Shown piece after piece: positions 1 to 63,699 of a DNA stretch of 64,000 bases. Source of the DNA: a virus (taxonomy: Duplodnaviria; Caudoviricetes); IMG/VR virus record IMGVR_UViG_3300021400_001148, positions 160,001-224,000 of that record; one strand, 5' to 3'. A model generated the notes under the pieces. It did no database searches and was not told the DNA's origin. It worked only from the letters and a program-made list of their open reading frames with translations. Position numbers and translations under genes: made by a program. Positions within the stretch are counted from its first letter, which is position 1, and every line of letters starts with the position of its first letter.

Positions 1-6
1 CCTGTT

Positions 7-591
7 TTGAAGAGACTGGTTGAGGCTGGACACAAGTTAATTCTTTTTACAATGCGAAGTTCTAAAAATGGAACCCTGCAAGACGCTGTCAATTGGTTTA
101 AAGAGAACAACATTCCATTATATGGTGTAAACACTAATCCAACACAAAGTGAGTGGACTGATTCACCAAAAGCACATTGCAATGTATACATTGACGATGC
201 TGGTTTTGGTATGCCGGTGAAATTCGATTCTGAAAGTAGAAGAAGATATGTCGACTGGGAAAAATTGGAAAGTATGCTAGAAGAAGAAGGAATATTAGAA
301 TCAGAAAATAATGATAATATGAGAAAAGTGCAAATAACGGAATCAGTTCTTCGGTCGATAATCGAAGAAAGTGTAAAGAGGATACTTGAATCCACCGATG
401 AGAAAGCAGTCTCTAAGGCACAGCAAAGATTTTTCGGTATGGTCCACGCATATCAAAATGGAGATATGCCCAATGCCAGCAAGTCAATAAAAGACGCTGC
501 TGACAGTATGACAGATGATGAAGTGGAGGATTTTGCATCTACAAAACACAAAGGCCTCCCGAATCATGTGAAAAAGAGTAAGAAAAAATAA
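7..591 (+). CDS. HAD-like hydrolase (5' end probably outside window) fused via the leader motif to a DUF3008-like C-terminal domain
   Basis: LILFTMRS...YIDDAG HAD motifs; internal MRKVQITESVLRSIIEESVKRILES; C-terminal SKAQQRFFG...FASTKHKGLP resembles DUF3008. Confidence 0.6.
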   Translation: MKRLVEAGHKLILFTMRSSKNGTLQDAVNWFKENNIPLYGVNTNPTQSEWTDSPKAHCNVYIDDAGFGMPVKFDSESRRRYVDWEKLESMLEEEGILESENNDNMRKVQITESVLRSIIEESVKRILESTDEKAVSKAQQRFFGMVHAYQNGDMPNASKSIKDAADSMTDDEVEDFASTKHKGLPNHVKKSKKK

Positions 592-5473: not shown

Positions 5474-5917
5474 CTATTGTAAAAGGTTTTTTACGATTTT
5501 TGAAATTACTTGTCCTGAGGCAGTGCCGGCCATTTGTTTATTGGCAAGTCCCATGACCTTTCCCATATCCCTAATAGAGGTTGCACCAACATCAGAAATG
5601 ATTTTCTTGATACTTTTTGTAATTTCTTCTTCAGAAAGTTGTTTCGGGAGATATTCTTCGAGGTACCTGTTTTCAGATAATTCTTTCTCAGCCAAATCCG
5701 GGCGGTTTGCGTTTTGATATATTTCGGCCGACTCGCGATGCTGTTTAACCAGTTTCTGGATGAGTTTCAGAACAACATCATCAGTTGCATCCTTGTTTGC
5801 CCCGGAGGTCTTGTAAACTTGTATCTCGTTTTTAATGGCTTTCACAGCAGACAGCCTGTCAGTATTTCGCTCTTTTGTAGCGGCAATAATGTCCTGTTGA
5901 ATTTTCTCTTCTAGCAT
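5474..5917 (-). CDS. GatB/YqeY domain protein
   Basis: KLVKQHRESAEIY..ANRPDLAEKE, YLPKQLSEEE, DMGKVMG; start MLEEKIQ (longer ORF overlaps the tRNA-like gene). Confidence 0.9.
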   Translation of the reverse strand: MLEEKIQQDIIAATKERNTDRLSAVKAIKNEIQVYKTSGANKDATDDVVLKLIQKLVKQHRESAEIYQNANRPDLAEKELSENRYLEEYLPKQLSEEEITKSIKKIISDVGATSIRDMGKVMGLANKQMAGTASGQVISKIVKNLLQ

Positions 5918-50704: not shown

Positions 50705-53269
50705 ATGTCAAATTATTACGATAACCAATTGTCTCATATGACACACCTTATGTTCTTCGGTGAATCCAAAGAAAATAAGGATAAGAAAAATATTGTTATT
50801 GAGAACAAGAAATATGGTGCTGATGGCAATGTTTACGGCATTGTTAAAGAAGGTACCAAATACTATGTCAAAACTACAACAAAGGACAAAGAAAACATTC
50901 TTGAATCCTTTGATTATATCGGCGGTTTCAATAACAGGAAAGATTACGAATATTCCAGTTACGCCGATGCTGTCAAGGATATGAATATGAAACTCATGTC
51001 TCTTAATGAAGACTATGGTAAAAGAGTCCCAGTGAATGAGGCTAAGAAAAACAATTTTGACTTCATGGATGAAAGTATGTCTGAAATGAAGGAAGATATT
51101 GCCCGTTATCGTCAAATCATGGAAAATATTGGCCAGATTTATGTTAACAAGAAGTCTGGCATTGGCGATAGGAATATTGGTGTTCCGGAGGCCCCAAAAA
51201 CCACTGATTTCAAACCAGAAATCGGCGGCCCGTTCGAAGATAAGGCCAAATATGAGGCAAATCGTGACAACAAAGAGAATGCTAAGAATTTCAAAGGTCA
51301 AGGCGGTCCTTTTGAAAAGGATAGTTCCGTTAGTGACTCCGAACTTGAGTCAGACAAAGCCCCTAAAGATATTGCCACAGACGATAAACTTGGTCAGCCT
51401 TATACTGATGCTGCACAGTATGTTCCTGACAACAGTGTTGCTGCCCAGCACCCAAAAGGCGGTGAGGTTGTAAGGGTTAATGAATCTTTTGAAGAAGAAA
51501 ATCCTGATATTGAAAGTGATGAATTTGGCCAATTAAGTCCCGAGAGTGACGCCCTTTCAAACGATGAAATTCTTTCAAAACTTGATGATACCGACGAAGA
51601 CGGTGAAACACCAGACTATGGGAATGATTTTTGGAATGAAATGGACCCCGAGTATCGTCGTCAACACGATGTAGATGGCGAAGGCAATGAGATTGCTGGC
51701 ATTGATGATATGAGTGGCGTTGACCGCAACGACATTGTTGACAGTGCTGTTAATGAGGCAGTGGAGAAAGTGCTCCATAGAAAAAATCTTGATGTGATTG
51801 CTGAGTCCGTTGCTAAAAGCCTTCTAAAAGAAGATGGTTTTGACGCTGGCACCAACAAGGGCGAAGAGGGTGACAGATACTTCAAACACGATTCTGATTT
51901 TAGATTCAAGGGTCCAGATTACAGTTCTTCAAAAAATAAAAAGGCTATAGATAACTCATTATCCAATTATATGGCCGGTGAGGGTAATAGAAAACCAAAC
52001 CTTCATAAAAATAAAGAAACGGGAGAAGCAGAACTTTATGACGAAAGCCCCAACGCTCCAAAATTTGTAAATCCGTTTAGAAAAGAACTTGATAAAAATA
52101 GTCCAAATTACGGCGAAAACAAATATGGGTTGAACATGAATGATGACCCTAACGATGATGATACGGATTTCGAAAAGAGACATGGGGCCTGGGAAAACAC
52201 TACAGATGTAAGACGAAAATTTTCCAATTATTTTTTATTGAACGGCCTTAAGGACCTTATTGATGCTGGGGCCGACCCCAAAAAAATGGTGGCGTTGGGT
52301 GATAAAATATCCAAGAGTTTTGAGCATGGCGTGTATGTTCTTCAAAGAGCCAAAAATGCGGCCGCACAAGACCTTGGCATTAGCCCTAGAATGATTGAGA
52401 ACTTCCTTTCCTCAAATTTCAAATTTGGGCAAGAATCTATTTCCGATGAAGATGATAAGAAACAAGTGTACACAGATTCTTTGAACAAATTCGGTTATCG
52501 TGATGCTAAAGTCTCTCAAAACTGCTTCATTCTTCCGGATGGAGAACTCCCCTTGAATCAGGAAAGCAAAGCATATTGTGAGGACCTAATGAATGGTCAA
52601 GTAGTTATTGGTCCTAGTTTAAAGGCCGTTGGTTATACAAATAGTGACGGTTCAGACCTCTCAACTGAAGACCTCAGGTCTTTTGTTGATGATTGTATGA
52701 AATGGGACAGCGAGTGGACAGAGGTGCTTGATACAGAAGAGGAGACGATGAAGTCAGTAATTGAATATATTAACTCAATTAAGGCTAACGATTCATATAG
52801 TGCTACTGATAGTACTAACATGCGTACCGCCATTTCTCAATGGTATAACATTATTGAACAGTTTGGTGCCTTGCAATCCCTTGTGATTATTCCTATGGAA
52901 GTACTTAATCGCAGGGAGGATGCAGAAGACCTTGTTAAATATGGAAAATTCAAGAGGAACCCGGAAGCACTGAGAACTGTCGGCCGTAGTGATGTGAGTA
53001 GCTCTGTTCCAGCAAGGGCTGGCCTTAGCGAAGAGACAACAGTTCTTCACGATTTCGGTAAACACCCGGGATACAGAAAGAAACCTATGGTTCATCCAGA
53101 AAATGTGGAAGACGCCCCCAACGGTGCAAAGGACTGGAACGACGATTCCACTAAAAGTTCAGAACCATTTGGAAAGCAGATTGGCTCCAGTAGCCCCTAT
53201 GATGAAATTGTGAAAAATGCTGTAAAAGCCGTAATCACTGTTTTAAAAGAAAATCAAAATAAAAAGTAA
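50705..53269 (+). CDS. large acidic late protein, probable head/core component
   Basis: late promoter, many (L/V/I)xE sites, GxPF motifs. Confidence 0.65.
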   Translation: MSNYYDNQLSHMTHLMFFGESKENKDKKNIVIENKKYGADGNVYGIVKEGTKYYVKTTTKDKENILESFDYIGGFNNRKDYEYSSYADAVKDMNMKLMSLNEDYGKRVPVNEAKKNNFDFMDESMSEMKEDIARYRQIMENIGQIYVNKKSGIGDRNIGVPEAPKTTDFKPEIGGPFEDKAKYEANRDNKENAKNFKGQGGPFEKDSSVSDSELESDKAPKDIATDDKLGQPYTDAAQYVPDNSVAAQHPKGGEVVRVNESFEEENPDIESDEFGQLSPESDALSNDEILSKLDDTDEDGETPDYGNDFWNEMDPEYRRQHDVDGEGNEIAGIDDMSGVDRNDIVDSAVNEAVEKVLHRKNLDVIAESVAKSLLKEDGFDAGTNKGEEGDRYFKHDSDFRFKGPDYSSSKNKKAIDNSLSNYMAGEGNRKPNLHKNKETGEAELYDESPNAPKFVNPFRKELDKNSPNYGENKYGLNMNDDPNDDDTDFEKRHGAWENTTDVRRKFSNYFLLNGLKDLIDAGADPKKMVALGDKISKSFEHGVYVLQRAKNAAAQDLGISPRMIENFLSSNFKFGQESISDEDDKKQVYTDSLNKFGYRDAKVSQNCFILPDGELPLNQESKAYCEDLMNGQVVIGPSLKAVGYTNSDGSDLSTEDLRSFVDDCMKWDSEWTEVLDTEEETMKSVIEYINSIKANDSYSATDSTNMRTAISQWYNIIEQFGALQSLVIIPMEVLNRREDAEDLVKYGKFKRNPEALRTVGRSDVSSSVPARAGLSEETTVLHDFGKHPGYRKKPMVHPENVEDAPNGAKDWNDDSTKSSEPFGKQIGSSSPYDEIVKNAVKAVITVLKENQNKK

Positions 53270-54250: not shown

Positions 54251-54739
54251 ATGAGTGATATGTTAACCAAAATGCCGTTGCAGTATGAGCCTAAAAGAAA
54301 AAATAGGTTTATACTCCGTTTTCCTTCCGACCTCGGCATTAATGAATGGACCGTGGTGAGTGCTTCAAGGCCTCAAATACAGCAAAATGTTACTGAAATC
54401 CAGTTCCTTAACACCTCTACTTATGTAGTTGGTCGTTATACTTGGCAGACCATTCAGGTAACACTTCGTGACCCAATCGGTCCAAGCTCAGCACAAGCTG
54501 TTATGGAGTGGGTTCGTCTTCATTCCGAATCAATCACTGGTCGTCAGGGATATGCCGCGGGATACAAAAGAGATGTTGAACTCGAAATGCTTGACCCTAC
54601 CGGCGTAGTGTGCGAGAAATGGATTTTGAAGAACACATTTCTAAGTGATGTCAACTATGGCAATTTAAGTTATACTGATGATGCTCTCGCTGATATTACT
54701 ATGACACTTCGTCCTGACTATTGTGTATTAGCATATTAG
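54251..54739 (+). CDS. tail tube protein (T4 gp19-like)
   Basis: 162 aa; NRF, GRYTWQTIQVTL, EWV, YKRDVELEMLD..G...EKWIL, YGNLSY, TLRPDY. Confidence 0.85.
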   Translation: MSDMLTKMPLQYEPKRKNRFILRFPSDLGINEWTVVSASRPQIQQNVTEIQFLNTSTYVVGRYTWQTIQVTLRDPIGPSSAQAVMEWVRLHSESITGRQGYAAGYKRDVELEMLDPTGVVCEKWILKNTFLSDVNYGNLSYTDDALADITMTLRPDYCVLAY

Positions 54740-54764: not shown

Positions 54765-54797
54765 TGGTGGCTAAGACTCTTAGCCACCATTTTTTTT
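54765..54797 (+). terminator. terminator after tail tube gene
   Basis: tggtggctaag/cttagccacca stem plus T run. Confidence 0.8.
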
Positions 54798-54862
54798 CGG
54801 AATTATCCCTTTATCTGTTGTGAATAAGTCATAAAGAAAGCCGTAGGTGAAAAATCTACGGC

Positions 54863-55387
54863 TTAAATTGTATCAACATATTGTGTTATTGTATCTGTGT
54901 TTCTTGATAGAATTGCATTGAATATACCCTGCACTTTGCTTATGCAATCAATCAGCGTTGTAGCATATTCGTCTGACTTCGTATCAATACCTTCTTCGTA
55001 GAACTTATTGTGAACGGTAAGGTTGATTGCATTTGGTATTGAGAAGTCATTTTCTTCCCAAACCTCATTAAAAACTTTTTGCCTCTTCTCAGGTGCATCA
55101 TTTCCTTTGATGGAATGCCTTGCAGCAGTTGAAAGATGTCCCCTCAATTCTCCTTTCCAATGCTCTTTTGATAATGGTTCGCCTGTAATTGTACAATAGT
55201 GAACCAAGCACCAATTTATAAGAATTTGAGGTAATTCATTGTTGATTTTTTCCTTATAAACACCCCTTGGATATGGCATTTCCATAATCAGATGTTTTCC
55301 CCTTGCTTCCAACGCCTGCTCCACAGATTCCCGAATCATTTCCCTTAATTGAGATTCGGAGAGTTTTATCACTTCTTTCTTTGCCAT
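54863..55387 (-). CDS. IS passenger protein with leader motif
   Basis: MAKKEVIKLSESQLREMIRESVEQALE; helical domain with HWKGEL; hairpin 54838-54864 downstream. Confidence 0.75.
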   Translation of the reverse strand: MAKKEVIKLSESQLREMIRESVEQALEARGKHLIMEMPYPRGVYKEKINNELPQILINWCLVHYCTITGEPLSKEHWKGELRGHLSTAARHSIKGNDAPEKRQKVFNEVWEENDFSIPNAINLTVHNKFYEEGIDTKSDEYATTLIDCISKVQGIFNAILSRNTDTITQYVDTI

Positions 55388-55439
55388 ATTCGTACTTAAG
55401 TTTTATCAAATATACTAAAAATATTTGAGAATTACAAAG

Positions 55440-55889
55440 TTAAAAGGCAAAATCACCATTAAGGTAAGAGTCTGGATGAATCGGATTTTCATAAGGTTTA
55501 TCATATTCATCTTTAAATTGATTAGCAAGTTCTATTAGTCCAACCTTCATCTTCTGAAAAGGCTCACAATATTTGTTCCCTGATTGGTAAAGAATACCTA
55601 CGGCATCAGCCAATGAGTTGATTGAGTCCTTAATTTTTCCCATAGCCGATGAATAATCAAAAACCTCTTCAGATTCCTTCAAGTTTTTATTGTTAGGGTT
55701 TTTTCCACCTTTGTATATGTAGTCCATTGTTTCCCTATACTTGCTGGCATCGTCCATATCTTTAAACCATTGTTGCATGGGGTCCTTCTTATCTCGTTTA
55801 GGGTGATATTCTTTCAAAACTTTTTTCACGCTCTCTGTAATCATGTTTCGGAGTTGCGTTTCATTCAATTTGATTACATTCTTCTCCAT
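55440..55889 (-). CDS. IS passenger protein with leader motif
   Basis: MEKNVIKLNETQLRNMITESVKKVLKE; TATTTATA element at 55922-55929. Confidence 0.75.
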   Translation of the reverse strand: MEKNVIKLNETQLRNMITESVKKVLKEYHPKRDKKDPMQQWFKDMDDASKYRETMDYIYKGGKNPNNKNLKESEEVFDYSSAMGKIKDSINSLADAVGILYQSGNKYCEPFQKMKVGLIELANQFKDEYDKPYENPIHPDSYLNGDFAF

Positions 55890-55946
55890 ATATTCAATCT
55901 ATTTATAAAGTCTTATTTAATTATAAATAGTTTGAAAACCAGTAAA

Positions 55947-56888
55947 CTACGCAGCAATTGAAAGTTTTACGAGACTTTCGAAACCTTCTTCCACTTTTCT
56001 GTGATTCATACGGAAACAGAATTCATCCATATATGTCTGCATGTGCTTGACTGATACATGATGATAGATACCATATACACCCCTTTTCACGATTGCCCAA
56101 AAGGATTCAATACCATTGGTATGCTTTCCGTCACCCTTGGAAAATTCAACATCGTGGTTCACCATGATACGAATGAAATTCTTCGTGTTCTCAGCACGTC
56201 CTTCGTTAATGACATTGTAGCCACTGTACTGGTCTGTCATAACCGTAGTACCTTCCTTACAGGCATCATTCAGTACCTTTAACAATTGTTTACCTGACAG
56301 TTTAGTCCCATCTGAATTCTTGGTGGCAACCACACAATGCACCCTGCCACTACTTCTTTCCTTAACACCGATAACAGGTGTTTTGGAAGACGAACCACGC
56401 CCACGCTTGTTAAATTTCTCATTGGTTTCCCTCTCATTGTGAATATTTTCCTTACGAGGTTTACCACCAACATAAGTTTCATCAACTTCCACAATGGCTT
56501 CAAAAGTATTCTTATACTCTTCCTTACCCATGCACTCACGGATAAGGTGAAGCATTCTCCAAGCACCCTTATAGGAAACCATACCAAGTTCCCTTTGCAA
56601 CTGACAAGCGGAAATACCCTTCTTTGCAACCATAACGAGATTGATTGCATACAGCCACATGCGAATGTCAAGGTGGGTATTTTCAAAGATAGTTCCTGTC
56701 AGCACAGAGAAATGGGATTTGCAGTTATTGCAGTACAAATCCTTTCCGTCATGGGAGTTGTCTCTATAGATGTTATGAACACACCCACAGAACGGGCATA
56801 CATAAGTGCCGTTATACTTAACACGGATAATGAAGTCAATGGCAGACTTCTTGGTGGGGAAACGCTTGTTGAAATCAAAAATAGTCAT
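55947..56888 (-). CDS. IS1595-family DDE transposase
   Basis: CPFCG/CNNC zinc ribbon, HTH, VEVDETYVGG, TDQYSGY, NGIESFWAIVKR, YMDEFCFR. Confidence 0.93.
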   Translation of the reverse strand: MTIFDFNKRFPTKKSAIDFIIRVKYNGTYVCPFCGCVHNIYRDNSHDGKDLYCNNCKSHFSVLTGTIFENTHLDIRMWLYAINLVMVAKKGISACQLQRELGMVSYKGAWRMLHLIRECMGKEEYKNTFEAIVEVDETYVGGKPRKENIHNERETNEKFNKRGRGSSSKTPVIGVKERSSGRVHCVVATKNSDGTKLSGKQLLKVLNDACKEGTTVMTDQYSGYNVINEGRAENTKNFIRIMVNHDVEFSKGDGKHTNGIESFWAIVKRGVYGIYHHVSVKHMQTYMDEFCFRMNHRKVEEGFESLVKLSIAA

Positions 56889-56969
56889 AGTCTAAGTCCT
56901 TCTAACCTAAATCTATGACTATATACCCTAAAAGTCCAGGATTCTTACAACATAAAAAGGGATAATTCC

Positions 56970-57158
56970 GATTATTTTTATGTCATCAACGGAAAAAGAT
57001 ATAACCGTTTCGGATTCAGAAAAGATGTTCTGGTTAGGAAATACGGATGCCCGCCGGAGATGACAGAGAAGTCCTTCTGCGAATCAAAAGGATGGTATCG
57101 AATATACGATTGTGGGTGCCTTGTTTATAAGTGGGAAAAACCAATTGAAAGCGAGTAG
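56970..57158 (+). pseudogene. 3' remnant of a third homing endonuclease-like gene, truncated at the IS end
   Basis: frame reads DYFYVINGKRYNRFGFRKDVLVRKYGCPPEMTEKSFCESKGWYRIYDCGCLVYKW..*, close to the C-terminus of 35866..37575. Confidence 0.85.
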
Positions 57159-60298: not shown

Positions 60299-61966
60299 AT
60301 GAAATACTTGACCAAATTCGGTACTCAAAACGAATATGTTTCTTTTGCAAACAGCGATGCATACGAAACACCCAATGTAAGCCTTGTGGGGGAGGGTACT
60401 GTAAAGTACAATGACTATAGTAAGATGCCACTTACAATTAAAGCATTGGAAAGTGGTGTTTTTGGGCTTGTTTCGGACTATTATGAAGGATTTCTCGAAG
60501 TTGACCTCTGGTATTCAAAGAACGGTGGCGAAAGAATAACCATTACTTCTGCTGACACCGTTAGTGTCAATGCAGGTGATATTTTGGAATTGTATGGAAA
60601 CAACACCCGTTTCTACAATGATGATGACAGTGAGTTGGGCACATACTTTTCTATAGGTTTTGAGTGCAATATATATGGCAATCTAATGTCCATCTTCAAC
60701 GGGGATGGCTTCAAGACCAATTCGGAATTTACGCCGGAATATAATAAACAATGTTATGGTCTATTTAGGGAAAGCAAAGTAGTTGATGCTTCTAAATTGA
60801 TATTACCCGCAACCACGCTTGCGGGCTCTTGCTATCAGTATATGTTCAATGGTTGCACCTCCCTGATATCAGCGCCGGCGGCACTTCCAGCAACCACGCT
60901 TGCACCGGATTGCTATTCCAGTATGTTCCAAGATTGTATCTCCCTGACCTCCGCACCGGCACTCCCTGCAACGACGCTTGTGAGTAATTGCTATGAGAAT
61001 ATGTTCGCTGGTTGCGCCTCCCTGGCCTCTGCACCGGAACTCCCAGCGACCACACTTGCGAATCATTGTTATTACGGTATGTTCGATGGTTGCACTTCCC
61101 TGACCTCCGCACCGGAACTTCCAGCAACCACGCTTTCAAGTAATTGTTATAACTATATGTTCAGTGGTTGCACATCCCTGGCATCAGCACCGGAACTTCC
61201 AGCAACCACGCTTGCGAATGGTTGCTATCAGAATATGTTCTTTGGTTGCACCTCCCTTGCCTCCGCACCTGAACTTCCCGCAACCACCCTTGCGGATTCT
61301 TGCTATCAGTATATGTTCCGTAATTGCACCTCCCTGACCTCCGCGCCAGAACTTTCAGCAACCACCCTTGCGAATTCTTGCTGTCTGCATATGTTCAATG
61401 GTTGCACCTCCCTGACCTCTGTGCCGGAACTTCCCGCAACCACACTTGCGACTCGTTGCTATTCCAATATGTTCCAAGGTTGCACCTCTCTGACCTCCGC
61501 ACCTGAACTCCCCGCAACCACCCTTGCAGATAATTGCTATCAGTATATGTTCAAAAATTGCACCTCGCTGACCTCCGCGCCGGAACTTCCCGCAACCACG
61601 CTTACAACTCAATGCTATTACAATATGTTCGTAGGTTGCGTCTCCCTGACCTCCGCACCGGAACTTCCAGCAACCACACTTGCGAATTATTGCTATCAAA
61701 ATATGTTCCAAGGTTGCACTTCTCTTATCTCTGCGCCGGAACTTCCGGCGACCACCCTTGCATCTCAATGCTATTACAGCATATTCAGTGGTTGCACATC
61801 CCTAAATCACATCAAGTGCCTTGCAACGAATATATCAGCAACAGGGGCATTAACAAATTGGGTTCGGAATGTTGCCGCATCAGGAACTTTTATAAAAAAA
61901 TCAGGCGTGTCTTGGCCCTCAGGTGTGAGTGGTATTCCTTCCGGTTGGACAGTTCAAGAAGTATAA
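60299..61966 (+). CDS. BspA-like leucine-rich repeat protein, candidate receptor-binding/decoration protein
   Basis: 13 x 26 aa repeats ELPATTLxxxCYxxMFxxCTSLTSAP; late promoter; C-terminal cap GIPSGWTV. Confidence 0.85.
   Translation: MKYLTKFGTQNEYVSFANSDAYETPNVSLVGEGTVKYNDYSKMPLTIKALESGVFGLVSDYYEGFLEVDLWYSKNGGERITITSADTVSVNAGDILELYGNNTRFYNDDDSELGTYFSIGFECNIYGNLMSIFNGDGFKTNSEFTPEYNKQCYGLFRESKVVDASKLILPATTLAGSCYQYMFNGCTSLISAPAALPATTLAPDCYSSMFQDCISLTSAPALPATTLVSNCYENMFAGCASLASAPELPATTLANHCYYGMFDGCTSLTSAPELPATTLSSNCYNYMFSGCTSLASAPELPATTLANGCYQNMFFGCTSLASAPELPATTLADSCYQYMFRNCTSLTSAPELSATTLANSCCLHMFNGCTSLTSVPELPATTLATRCYSNMFQGCTSLTSAPELPATTLADNCYQYMFKNCTSLTSAPELPATTLTTQCYYNMFVGCVSLTSAPELPATTLANYCYQNMFQGCTSLISAPELPATTLASQCYYSIFSGCTSLNHIKCLATNISATGALTNWVRNVAASGTFIKKSGVSWPSGVSGIPSGWTVQEV
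60803..61806 (+). repeat. 13 tandem 78 bp coding repeats
   Basis: ccgcaaccacgcttgcg...tgctat...atgttc...ggttgcacctccctgacctccgcaccggaact unit. Confidence 0.9.
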
Positions 61967-62031: not shown

Positions 62032-63699
62032 CTAAGGTCTTGGAATACTTCCAGTTTGTCCATCCGGCGAAGTGAATTCAATTTCTTCGGGCTCAATATC
62101 AATGTCTCCGCCACCAATATTTGTACCATTCCCATAACCCTCAAATTTCCAAGTACCTCCGTTTTCATCTTTAACTTCACCCCAGAGGTTTACACTGCAA
62201 CCGTAAGGTGGGTCGACCCAGTCAGCAATCTCATGCTCCAGATTGGTTCGTTCGTACATTTCTTGGGCTTTCCTAAGCAGGGGATTTTGTATTGCCTCGT
62301 CGCGTTCTGCTTTGTTAAAAGCATCGGTGAAGTTTTTCAAATGCTGGGCAATCGGTTTTTTGTCTTTCGGATGAAGCGGGTTCCCGTACTGGTCCTTTTC
62401 AAGACTGTTTCTTTCACTTCCACCCCATCCATATTTTTGCCAGAACTTATTACTGGCACGACCAATCATATCAGAGGAAATTTCGTTGATTTGCTGGTTT
62501 CTTGGGGTTACCCGGCTTTGCATATCCATTGAAAATTCCTCTTTCAACACCTTTTTCACACTTTCGGTAATAATCTGTCTGAGAGTGCTCTCGTTTATCT
62601 TTACTACATTCTTCTTCATATAATTTCTTCTTTGTATCATTATTTCATTTATCGCATTCTTAATCATCTCTCGAACATCATTCTCATTCAGTTTAGTAAC
62701 CCATTTATATTCAGAAAACGGTTTTTTCTGTTTTTTGCCATCATAAAGCCATTCCTTGAATTTATCCACACTGACTTCTGTAATTTTCCTGAAGCCTTTC
62801 CAATCTTTTGAAAAGTTAGCGAAGTATGCATCTTTCGCTTCTTTTTCGTTACGAAATCCAAGCATCACCTTGCTCTCATCAAAACTACCATCGGTTTTGT
62901 TCTGGTCAACAACATATATCTTATCGAAGTCCAAATAGGTGCCGATAAAAACATCGACAGCATCCCCATCATACCCTTCGCTCCGTTTGAAGTACCCGTA
63001 ATGGTGTTTCATAACATTGAATCCCTTGGTACCATCCGGATTTTTATAATATCTCTTACTCCCTTTCGGGTTCTCTATCGTGATATCAAAGCCTTTTATC
63101 CGGACATGGCCCATACGGTAGTTACCGGCCTCTTTCTCGGAGTCAGTCGGATTCTTGTCAGCCTTGTTTGCCAAAGCGGTAATCTCTTTGTTAGTGATTT
63201 CGTTAACCATAGTGTGTTCTTTTGCTATTTCTTCAAATGCATCATATAAATCAGAATGGAAGATATGCGTTGCCTCCGGAAAAAAATATTCACCGAATTC
63301 CTCACACAAAGATTCCTCCTTATCATAGTTTGAGTGAATTATTTTATTAACAGTCTCGCTGTTTCCTTTCCGAAGCACATTTCTCATCCAGTCAATCAAT
63401 CCATGCCCAACCTCGTGCATAATACTTATTTTTGCCTGCGCCTCTATGTTGAACCGGTCATTTTCAATCCCCCGGGACCTCATTTCGGAATAAATCAACG
63501 GCAGATTAACTCCGATGACGATTTTTCCGTTAGAAATCTGCCCACTGCGCCTGTTGTACACCGCAAGCCATTTCTTACCCCGGAAGTTGTAGGACAGGTC
63601 CAGAACTATTTTCAAACCGGCCCGGGAAATTAGTTCTTCAGCATCATCCATTGCCTCTTTGGCAAATCCAAGAAATATATTTTTGAATTCTTCGGGCAT
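62032..63699 (-). CDS. polyvalent protein: HExxH zincin-like domain, inorganic pyrophosphatase-like domain, two leader motifs, unknown C-terminal domain
   Basis: MHEVGHGL; GNYRMGH...IENPKGS.R...HYGYF...DGDAVDVFIG...FDESKVMLGF; KLNENDVREMIKNAINE and KINESTLRQIITESVKKVLKEE. Confidence 0.75.
   Translation of the reverse strand: MPEEFKNIFLGFAKEAMDDAEELISRAGLKIVLDLSYNFRGKKWLAVYNRRSGQISNGKIVIGVNLPLIYSEMRSRGIENDRFNIEAQAKISIMHEVGHGLIDWMRNVLRKGNSETVNKIIHSNYDKEESLCEEFGEYFFPEATHIFHSDLYDAFEEIAKEHTMVNEITNKEITALANKADKNPTDSEKEAGNYRMGHVRIKGFDITIENPKGSKRYYKNPDGTKGFNVMKHHYGYFKRSEGYDGDAVDVFIGTYLDFDKIYVVDQNKTDGSFDESKVMLGFRNEKEAKDAYFANFSKDWKGFRKITEVSVDKFKEWLYDGKKQKKPFSEYKWVTKLNENDVREMIKNAINEIMIQRRNYMKKNVVKINESTLRQIITESVKKVLKEEFSMDMQSRVTPRNQQINEISSDMIGRASNKFWQKYGWGGSERNSLEKDQYGNPLHPKDKKPIAQHLKNFTDAFNKAERDEAIQNPLLRKAQEMYERTNLEHEIADWVDPPYGCSVNLWGEVKDENGGTWKFEGYGNGTNIGGGDIDIEPEEIEFTSPDGQTGSIPRP

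Follow-up and report, generated by a model that had tools for sequence, protein, structure and literature searches.

Insertion sequences (IS) are rare in the genomes of virulent phages. Within the IS1595 family there are passenger-carrying elements, the 'transporter IS', which were reportedly described by Siguier, Gagnevin and Chandler in 2009 with the subgroups ISPna2+, ISNwi1+ and ISNha5. An element of this family is present in the stretch of phage DNA analyzed here (the window, 64,000 nucleotides), which comprises bases 160,001-224,000 of a 354,809-bp virus record of IMG/VR, which has direct terminal repeats and a GC content of 41%; contigs nearly identical to it were recovered from the gut or rumen metagenomes of sheep, cattle and goats. 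The element is 2,173 bp in length and has three minus-strand genes, all in one orientation, between inverted repeats. In our judgment it is quite probably a passenger-carrying transporter IS from a clade resident in Bacteroidales, which arrived recently in this 355-kb jumbo phage with a cargo of genes that share a short helical peptide motif.

Like the other transporter IS of the IS1595 family, the element has a single zinc-ribbon DDE transposase, short inverted repeats and passengers placed between the transposase and the far repeat, while 8-bp AT-rich target duplications are seen with its sister copies. Its ends, CGGAATT, fit the form CGGnnTT which we take to be that of ISNha5. It differs from ISNha5 in its size, 2.2 kb as against at least 3.4 kb, and in its location in a jumbo phage. 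We know of no description in the IS1595 family of a cargo that is defined by a shared peptide motif.

The inverted repeats (54797-54821 and 56947-56971) are 25 nt long, 92% complementary and form the longest inverted pair of the region, with the CGGAATT tips at 54798 and 56970. The terminal repeat of the cargo end (54798-54821) has the outermost bases CGGAATTATCCC, the same sequence bounding the sister elements, while that of the transposase end (56947-56970) was delimited by the inverted-pair search and by comparison with sister elements. The transposase gene (55947-56888, minus strand) codes for a protein of 313 aa with an N-terminal CxxC...CxxC zinc ribbon, which matches PF12762 (DDE_Tnp_IS1595) at 1.4e-30 with 106.8 bits (cut-off 27) and NF033547 at 2.9e-55 with 187.5 bits (cut-off 75). 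Residues C31, C34, C53, C56, D136, D219, N258, E261, K268 and R269 do not vary among 13 relatives, the most divergent of which is 35% identical, and, as judged from its sequence, the transposase is intact and a member of the IS1595 family. An earlier reading of the letters alone, the first-pass annotation, had described repeats with CGGAATT tips enclosing an intact transposase and two genes led by a common motif, and in this it was correct.

Just 3′ of the transposase stop there is an intergenic AT hairpin (55893-55936, minus strand). It holds a TATTTATA box (55929-55922, on the coding strand) which lies 32 nt 5′ of the start of the next gene, cargo A, and pairs with an inverted copy at 55900; the box is kept at this place in all sister elements. 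Cargo A (55440-55889, minus strand) encodes 149 aa beginning MEKNVIKLNETQLRNMITESVKKVLKE and is modular in structure, possessing the helix motif, a KDPMxxWFKDM module and a helical C-terminal module. Cargo B (54863-55387, minus strand) encodes 174 aa beginning MAKKEVIKLSESQLREMIRESVEQALE, with the helix motif followed by a compact helical domain; 20 nt 5′ of its start is a putative Bacteroidetes-type promoter, TTTG-N20-TATATTTG (55407-55438, minus strand), read from the sequence. The cargo unit is closed by an intrinsic terminator (54829-54864, minus strand) recognized by folding energy and z score, its hairpin (54838-54864) having a 9-bp stem, a folding energy of -12.8 kcal/mol and a z score of -5.2, followed by the U-rich tail UUUCUUUAU. 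The internal box, the host-type promoter at 55407 and the element's own terminator at 54838-54864 had all been listed by the first-pass annotation and are all present. The two genes have the standing of passengers in that they are open reading frames (ORFs) inside the repeats, and phage strains either have the unit as a whole or lack it entirely.

The element sits in the tail module of the phage, 3′ of the sheath gene (50705-53269), a gene for an acidic 303-aa protein and the gene for a T4-like tail tube protein (54251-54739; PHROG tail tube match, 7.8e-31). The terminator of the tail tube gene with its T-run occupies 54765-54797 (plus strand), and the cargo end of the IS abuts this T-run. On the far side there is a remnant without start codon (56973-57158, plus strand), consisting of the last 61 codons and the stop of a DUF723 endonuclease-like gene for 622 aa, the complete form of which is found in sister strains that lack the IS. 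The copy number of the element in the phage genome is one, and at least seven other assemblies of the phage have this IS at this site. An assembly chimera was considered and rejected, because the IS-phage junctions are shared by independent assemblies.

For comparison of alleles, contigs encoding a 100% identical tail tube protein were fetched, and two alleles were identified among them, one with the IS and the other with a DUF723 cassette. In contigs from two cattle studies, position 54797 is joined to position 56971 across 2,475 other bases, which encode two DUF723 proteins. Their genes, one of 245 aa and one of 622 aa, are on the plus strand (contig L160, 6612-9211) and, with DUF723 and treble-clef zinc-finger domains, are endonuclease-like. 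The flanks of the two alleles are 100% identical on the left and 97.4% identical on the right. The empty-site alleles for which the first-pass annotation had proposed a search thus exist as IS-free sister strains, with the 2,475-bp DUF723 cassette in place of the element. As 61 codons of the 622-aa gene remain in the IS allele, this allele descends from a DUF723-bearing ancestor, and the insertion is observed as a polymorphism that separates near-identical strains of the phage, the endonuclease cassette which it displaced being still recognizable. These alignments show the insertion to be recent: that the phage copy arrived recently we regard as firm, and that it is active as probable. No 8-bp target-site duplication was found at the phage copy, the flanks tttttttt and attatttt agreeing in 6/8 positions; the deletion of 2,475 bp accompanying the insertion accounts for this, since it removes one copy of any duplication. 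Among tail tube relatives of up to 81% identity, no conserved downstream gene and no empty site was found. In a more distant phage with a tail tube protein 81% identical, a 552-aa DUF723-type gene adjoins the tail tube gene at the equivalent place (L031, 6546-8204), so that the site seems to gather selfish genes, those for endonucleases apparently having a hot spot here.

There are 7,119 homologs of the transposase, the closest being 94% identical. All readable contexts of the relatives with 80-94% identity are bacterial and include metagenome-assembled genomes (MAGs) named Cryptobacteroides, Bacteroidia and Bacteroidales, where the neighbors of the sister elements are fatty-acid synthesis (fab) genes and genes for RHS, NUDIX, cytochrome bd, RNase Y and secreted esterase proteins. 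These bacterial copies share the inverted repeats of the phage copy (CGGAATTATCCCTTT), such ends being present in more than 10 sister elements, and in four of them perfect 8-bp AT-rich target duplications were identified (AAAAAATT, AAAAAATC, AAAAAAAT and AATGATTA). Their GC content is 37-42%, in flanks of 46-58%. A single-protein scan of IMG/VR with the transposase gave no relative apart from this phage, an alignment-based scan of IMG/VR none above 64% identity other than this phage, and a DNA search of GenBank phages with the element no match. There was also no further copy at E≤1e-60 in 300 sampled Bacteroidales genomes, a weak null result which says little because MAGs often lose IS copies. 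Given the relatives in bacterial chromosomes, the clade is not restricted to phages. The first-pass annotation had expected an element confined to this phage clade, and this expectation failed, the close relatives found all being in bacterial contexts and IMG/VR yielding none beyond this phage. Its broader claim of a phage-adapted element rather than a host IS holds in part: the cargo is variable and has the motif, and the TATTTATA box is an oriented element in the phage, but the 80-94% relatives reside in Bacteroidales chromosomes. In one sister element with 80% identity (L155/L156/L157) the inverted repeat extends to 37 nt, 25 nt of it outside the CGGAATT tip, and this copy may sit in a palindromic target or a nested repeat.

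Comparison of the sister elements shows a conserved backbone, in which an inverted repeat is followed by the transposase gene and then by about 45 nt beyond the stop codon, the TATTTATA box among them; from there on nothing is common until the far inverted repeat. The slot between is filled differently in each of the sisters, with genes of 70 and 288 aa, 51 and 255 aa, 161 aa, 273 aa together with a GIY-YIG protein, 329 aa, and 68 and 322 aa. A motif ORF is present in all seven elements of the ≥80% clade that were seen first (the phage element and six bacterial sisters), as well as in the sole element examined at 70% identity (L135), the motif lying at the N-terminus or else at residue 135-220; in one bacterial copy two genes with an N-terminal motif are arranged much as in the phage. 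In an independent metagenome sample of close relatives, a motif ORF was found downstream of the transposase in 7/8 cases and upstream in 0/4. Over the 126 further loci as a whole, it was found downstream in 19/95 and upstream in 3/94 (p = 4e-4). We therefore hold it as firm that the passenger slot of this Bacteroidales-resident clade is in practice reserved for helix-motif genes. A further motif gene, KNKTIKLTESDLHNIIKESMKKVLKES (L140, 1167-1370, minus strand), lies just outside the transposase-side end of a sister element with 70% identity and may be the remnant of another element.

The association is also found outside this clade. A separate lineage with 35-40% transposase identity is common in viral contigs, among them records of 235-412 kb, and often has a convergent motif gene (8/38 downstream, 3/40 upstream); the phage has a second IS1595-family element of such a kind. 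This lies outside the window at genome positions 239,629-241,295 (L111, 1630-3296) and is bounded by different inverted repeats, of 23 nt (GGGAACGATATACTAC...); its 313-aa transposase is 36% identical to the first, and its convergent motif gene starts MKKNTIKLNEQQLRKVIAGAIKKTLNE. In three whole bacterial MAGs there are only five motif ORFs, all of which are beside IS1595 transposases, of three lineages. Cousin elements with 63% transposase identity (L145-L153), from human and animal gut, have the inverted repeat CGGAATTATCTAC and a cargo encoding an N6-methylase/specificity-subunit fusion of 577-746 aa, and occupy at least two different chromosomal sites.

The motif itself is an amphipathic helix of about 25 residues with the consensus IKLxESQLRxIVxESVKKVLxE. 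A profile of 34 positions was searched against 1.84 billion proteins and matched 7,301 cluster representatives at E≤1e-3 and 322 at E≤1e-10, many of the proteins having two to four copies which are N-terminal or lie between modules. In this way a clade of transposons, together with at least one more lineage, is connected with a 'dark' protein family of 7,301 clusters whose only defining feature is a 25-residue helix. About 16 ORFs of the phage have the motif; a reversed control gave none. Its motif copies usually begin within two residues of a Met, internal copies included, and this is consistent with gene fusion. The mean nucleotide identity among motif copies is 56%, third positions vary most and 58% of identical residues have different codons; this codon divergence argues that the motif is selected as a peptide and not as DNA. 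In a related jumbo phage there are four consecutive motif genes without an IS (L029, 5001-6364), each starting MKKNxVKLNENTLRKIVAESVKKVLKE and continuing into unrelated C-termini, one of which genes is 58% identical to cargo A. No names were obtained in a cluster look-up of ten strong motif proteins, all being metagenomic, no paper containing the motif strings was found in the literature, and tblastn of GenBank phages with a two-motif protein gave no match. Pfam likewise has no family for the motif, its sole recurrent contact being the 43-position RelB_like_antitoxin family PF25734, which touches profile positions 2-23; all scores are below the gathering cut-off (15-22 as against 27 bits) and only 6/25 motif segments match, so that this is not membership. 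Complex prediction for a homodimer of the motif helix gave a score of 0.03, which was taken neither as support for binding nor as evidence against it.

Two further motif proteins of the window combine the motif with recognizable domains. The ORF at 1-591 (plus strand) has a HAD-like N-terminal domain, the motif after an internal Met and a DUF3008 tail (PF11450, 6.4e-09), and seems to have arisen by fusion, in frame, of a motif gene with the gene upstream of it. The gene at 62032-63699 (minus strand) encodes 555 aa with a HExxH metallopeptidase-like N-terminus, an InPase domain (PF18823, 1.1e-48), two motif copies and an extra C-terminal module. The first-pass annotation had pointed to a motif starting mid-protein at a Met in these two ORFs (7-591 and 62032-63699) as a possible sign of fusion; the internal copies are real, and their placement fits. 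Polyvalent proteins of phages and conjugative elements, with the Pfam domain InPase (PF18823), were reportedly described by Iyer et al. in 2017. The 62032-63699 protein is by its predicted architecture of this type, joining a HExxH region and InPase to other modules with the motif as punctuation; cargo A and B differ from such proteins in being small, with one or two modules. The helix is not known to be among the domain families of polyvalent proteins.

With regard to the structure of the cargo proteins, the AlphaFold2 model of cargo B has a predicted local distance difference test (pLDDT) score of 92 and places the motif as a helix at residues 11-30, ahead of the compact helical domain. Foldseek against the PDB gave nothing for it at E≤0.001; its best PDB match by VIA-align is 3fcn with a Z score of 8.2, which is within the range common for helical bundles and not decisive. 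The model of cargo A is poor (pLDDT 50), too poor for a structure search, and the relatives of this protein have their modules shuffled around the motif. Feature searches of the ESM Atlas returned unnamed clusters only, and the one PADLOC match, to PDC-S05 (E 0.036), was sub-threshold and concerned the motif region in the cargo of a sister element. There is one metatranscriptome contig with an exact match to cargo B (54928-55116) and none over cargo A or the transposase; as only contigs were available and DNA carry-over is possible, this match was not counted as evidence of expression.

Taken as a transporter IS, the element would function as follows. The DDE transposase would move whatever lies between the two 25-nt inverted repeats, the targets being AT-rich and 8 bp long. 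Its clade is at home in the chromosomes of rumen and gut Bacteroidales, and one copy has landed just 3′ of the tail tube terminator of the phage, with loss of 2,475 bp of the DUF723 endonuclease-like cassette. Behind the conserved backbone, the slot holds swappable small genes with their own putative promoters and terminator. These are likely phage-type accessory genes, which would have been acquired where such genes are abundant, namely in phage genomes, and which the elements would shuttle between phages and hosts. The helix may be a portable docking module by which unrelated domains are brought to one common partner. Should it turn out to signal docking or packaging, phage engineering would gain a portable tag, and the helix would provide a readout of which uncharacterized genes join one process in the Bacteroidales phages of rumen and gut. 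The family can be approached through the motif profile, through its IS context and through this phage, which has about 16 copies.

Several observations weigh against this account. The phage origin of the cargo is suggested by abundance and composition and not by a tree, and the donor side consists of relatives only, the best transposase match being 94% and no element identical to that of the phage having been found. The MAG and metagenome contigs could in principle include unrecognized prophage DNA, though the flanking genes are housekeeping genes. Sequence searches with cargo A and B in Pfam, PHROGs, NCBIfam, PADLOC and the PDB gave no match. The link with the motif is also clade-specific: the first-pass annotation had expected the variable cargo of relatives always to have it, and this is so for 7/7 and 7/8 elements of the close clade but not at 55-80% transposase identity, where most elements have other cargo and a motif ORF was found in 1/29. 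Finally, relatives of cargo B are found in a bacterial chromosome beside a tRNA gene without an IS, and bacterial motif genes are therefore not solely IS cargo. Two more settings of cargo B relatives lack an IS: an island that has SIR2 and HipA genes, and a phage-like contig that includes a tape measure gene. The tie between cargo and IS that had been proposed thus stands as far as the motif cargo of the clade is concerned, but relatives of both cargo genes also occur without the IS in other phages and bacteria.

The phage has 60 sites of the TATTTATA box, 48 of them intergenic, and at 8-70 nt before a start codon 29 are in the sense orientation and 8 in the antisense. For most of the sense sites the distance to the ATG is 12-28 nt, the genes being structural (sheath, tail tube and others) or, in several cases, motif genes. 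The box has no orientation bias (3 vs. 2) in a host-like Bacteroidia genome, of which 320 kb were covered, while the host box TAnnTTTG is biased to the sense orientation, as expected, in this DNA and in the phage. The presence of the bias in the phage but not in the host-like genome indicates that TATTTATA is a phage-type signal. The first-pass annotation had taken it as phage-specific wiring of this copy, which does not hold: the bacterial copies have the box too, as a conserved part of their backbone, and it is therefore not a phage adaptation of the copy in question. Either the whole clade is tuned to such phages, or the box serves the 3′ end of the transposase gene.

A broader reading, which we consider unlikely but which fares best among the alternatives, is that several IS1595 lineages are dedicated shuttles of a large and so far undescribed class of helix-tagged phage accessory genes, which they would carry between jumbo phages and Bacteroidales hosts. 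Their chromosomal copies, provided with the phage-type box, would be expressed only in infection, and the helix would dock the cargo on the partner of the phage tag, possibly a virion or assembly component, the transposon thereby arming the host or riding the phage.

Slightly less credit is given to the possibility that the cargo serves conflict. The phage-type box would switch chromosomal cargo on during infection and the helix would dock on the partner of the phage motif proteins, with decoy activity, abortive infection or parasitism as the outcome; in the phage the same genes would act against rival phages. This is consistent with the box being kept in bacterial copies although it is no general upstream element of the host-like genome, with the three MAGs in which motif genes occur only on IS1595 elements, and with conflict-type cargo in sisters and cousins such as the GIY-YIG nuclease and the N6-methylase/S fusion. 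However, in three bacterial sisters a GC hairpin follows the box immediately and 300-470 nt separate the box from the start of the cargo, a host-type TAnnTTTG being nearer the gene, so that the box may serve the transposase 3′ end instead, and PADLOC has no match for the cargo.

More doubtful again is the scheme of the first-pass annotation, that of a phage-adapted transposon wired to the phage late program, the N-terminal helix being a capsid-targeting leader and the cargo being packaged and injected so that effectors spread between jumbo phages. The internal proteins of phage T4 have a capsid-targeting sequence of about 10 N-terminal residues which is removed by the prohead protease. The helix is similar in being a short N-terminal amphipathic peptide common to otherwise unrelated small phage proteins, and it holds several L/I/V-x-E triplets, the form of T4 prohead-protease sites, as candidate sites of such removal. 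The scheme also draws on the oriented box upstream of structural genes and 32 nt before cargo A, which has no bias in the host-like genome, on the two different IS lineages of the phage that carry motif genes, and on the motif in the HExxH and InPase protein, polyvalent proteins being reportedly packaged. Nevertheless, the motif differs from the T4 sequence in being longer (about 25 aa) and present on bacterial IS cargo. It is mid-protein (residue 135-220) in many sister cargos, which is misplaced for a cleavable N-terminal leader, and its repetition two to four times fits poorly with a simple leader. The close relatives are in bacterial chromosomes, already with box and motif cargo, and the promoter of cargo B is of host type and not the phage box.

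That the motif is a cis-acting DNA or RNA site needed by the transposon, or a tag encoded by its backbone, is very improbable: the motif does accompany the transposase across lineages, but its distance from the element ends is not fixed, most phage copies have no IS nearby and, as a DNA or RNA signal, it was rejected on the codon divergence among copies noted above.

The box is also shared by a family of repeat proteins in this phage. The gene at 60299-61966 (plus strand) encodes a protein of 555 aa with about 20 repeats of the unit CYxxMFxGCTSLTSAPELPATTL. Three paralogs in the genome, at positions 5,621, 220,273 and 268,485, have a near-identical upstream region with TATTTATA and common first codons (MKYLTKFGTQ...).

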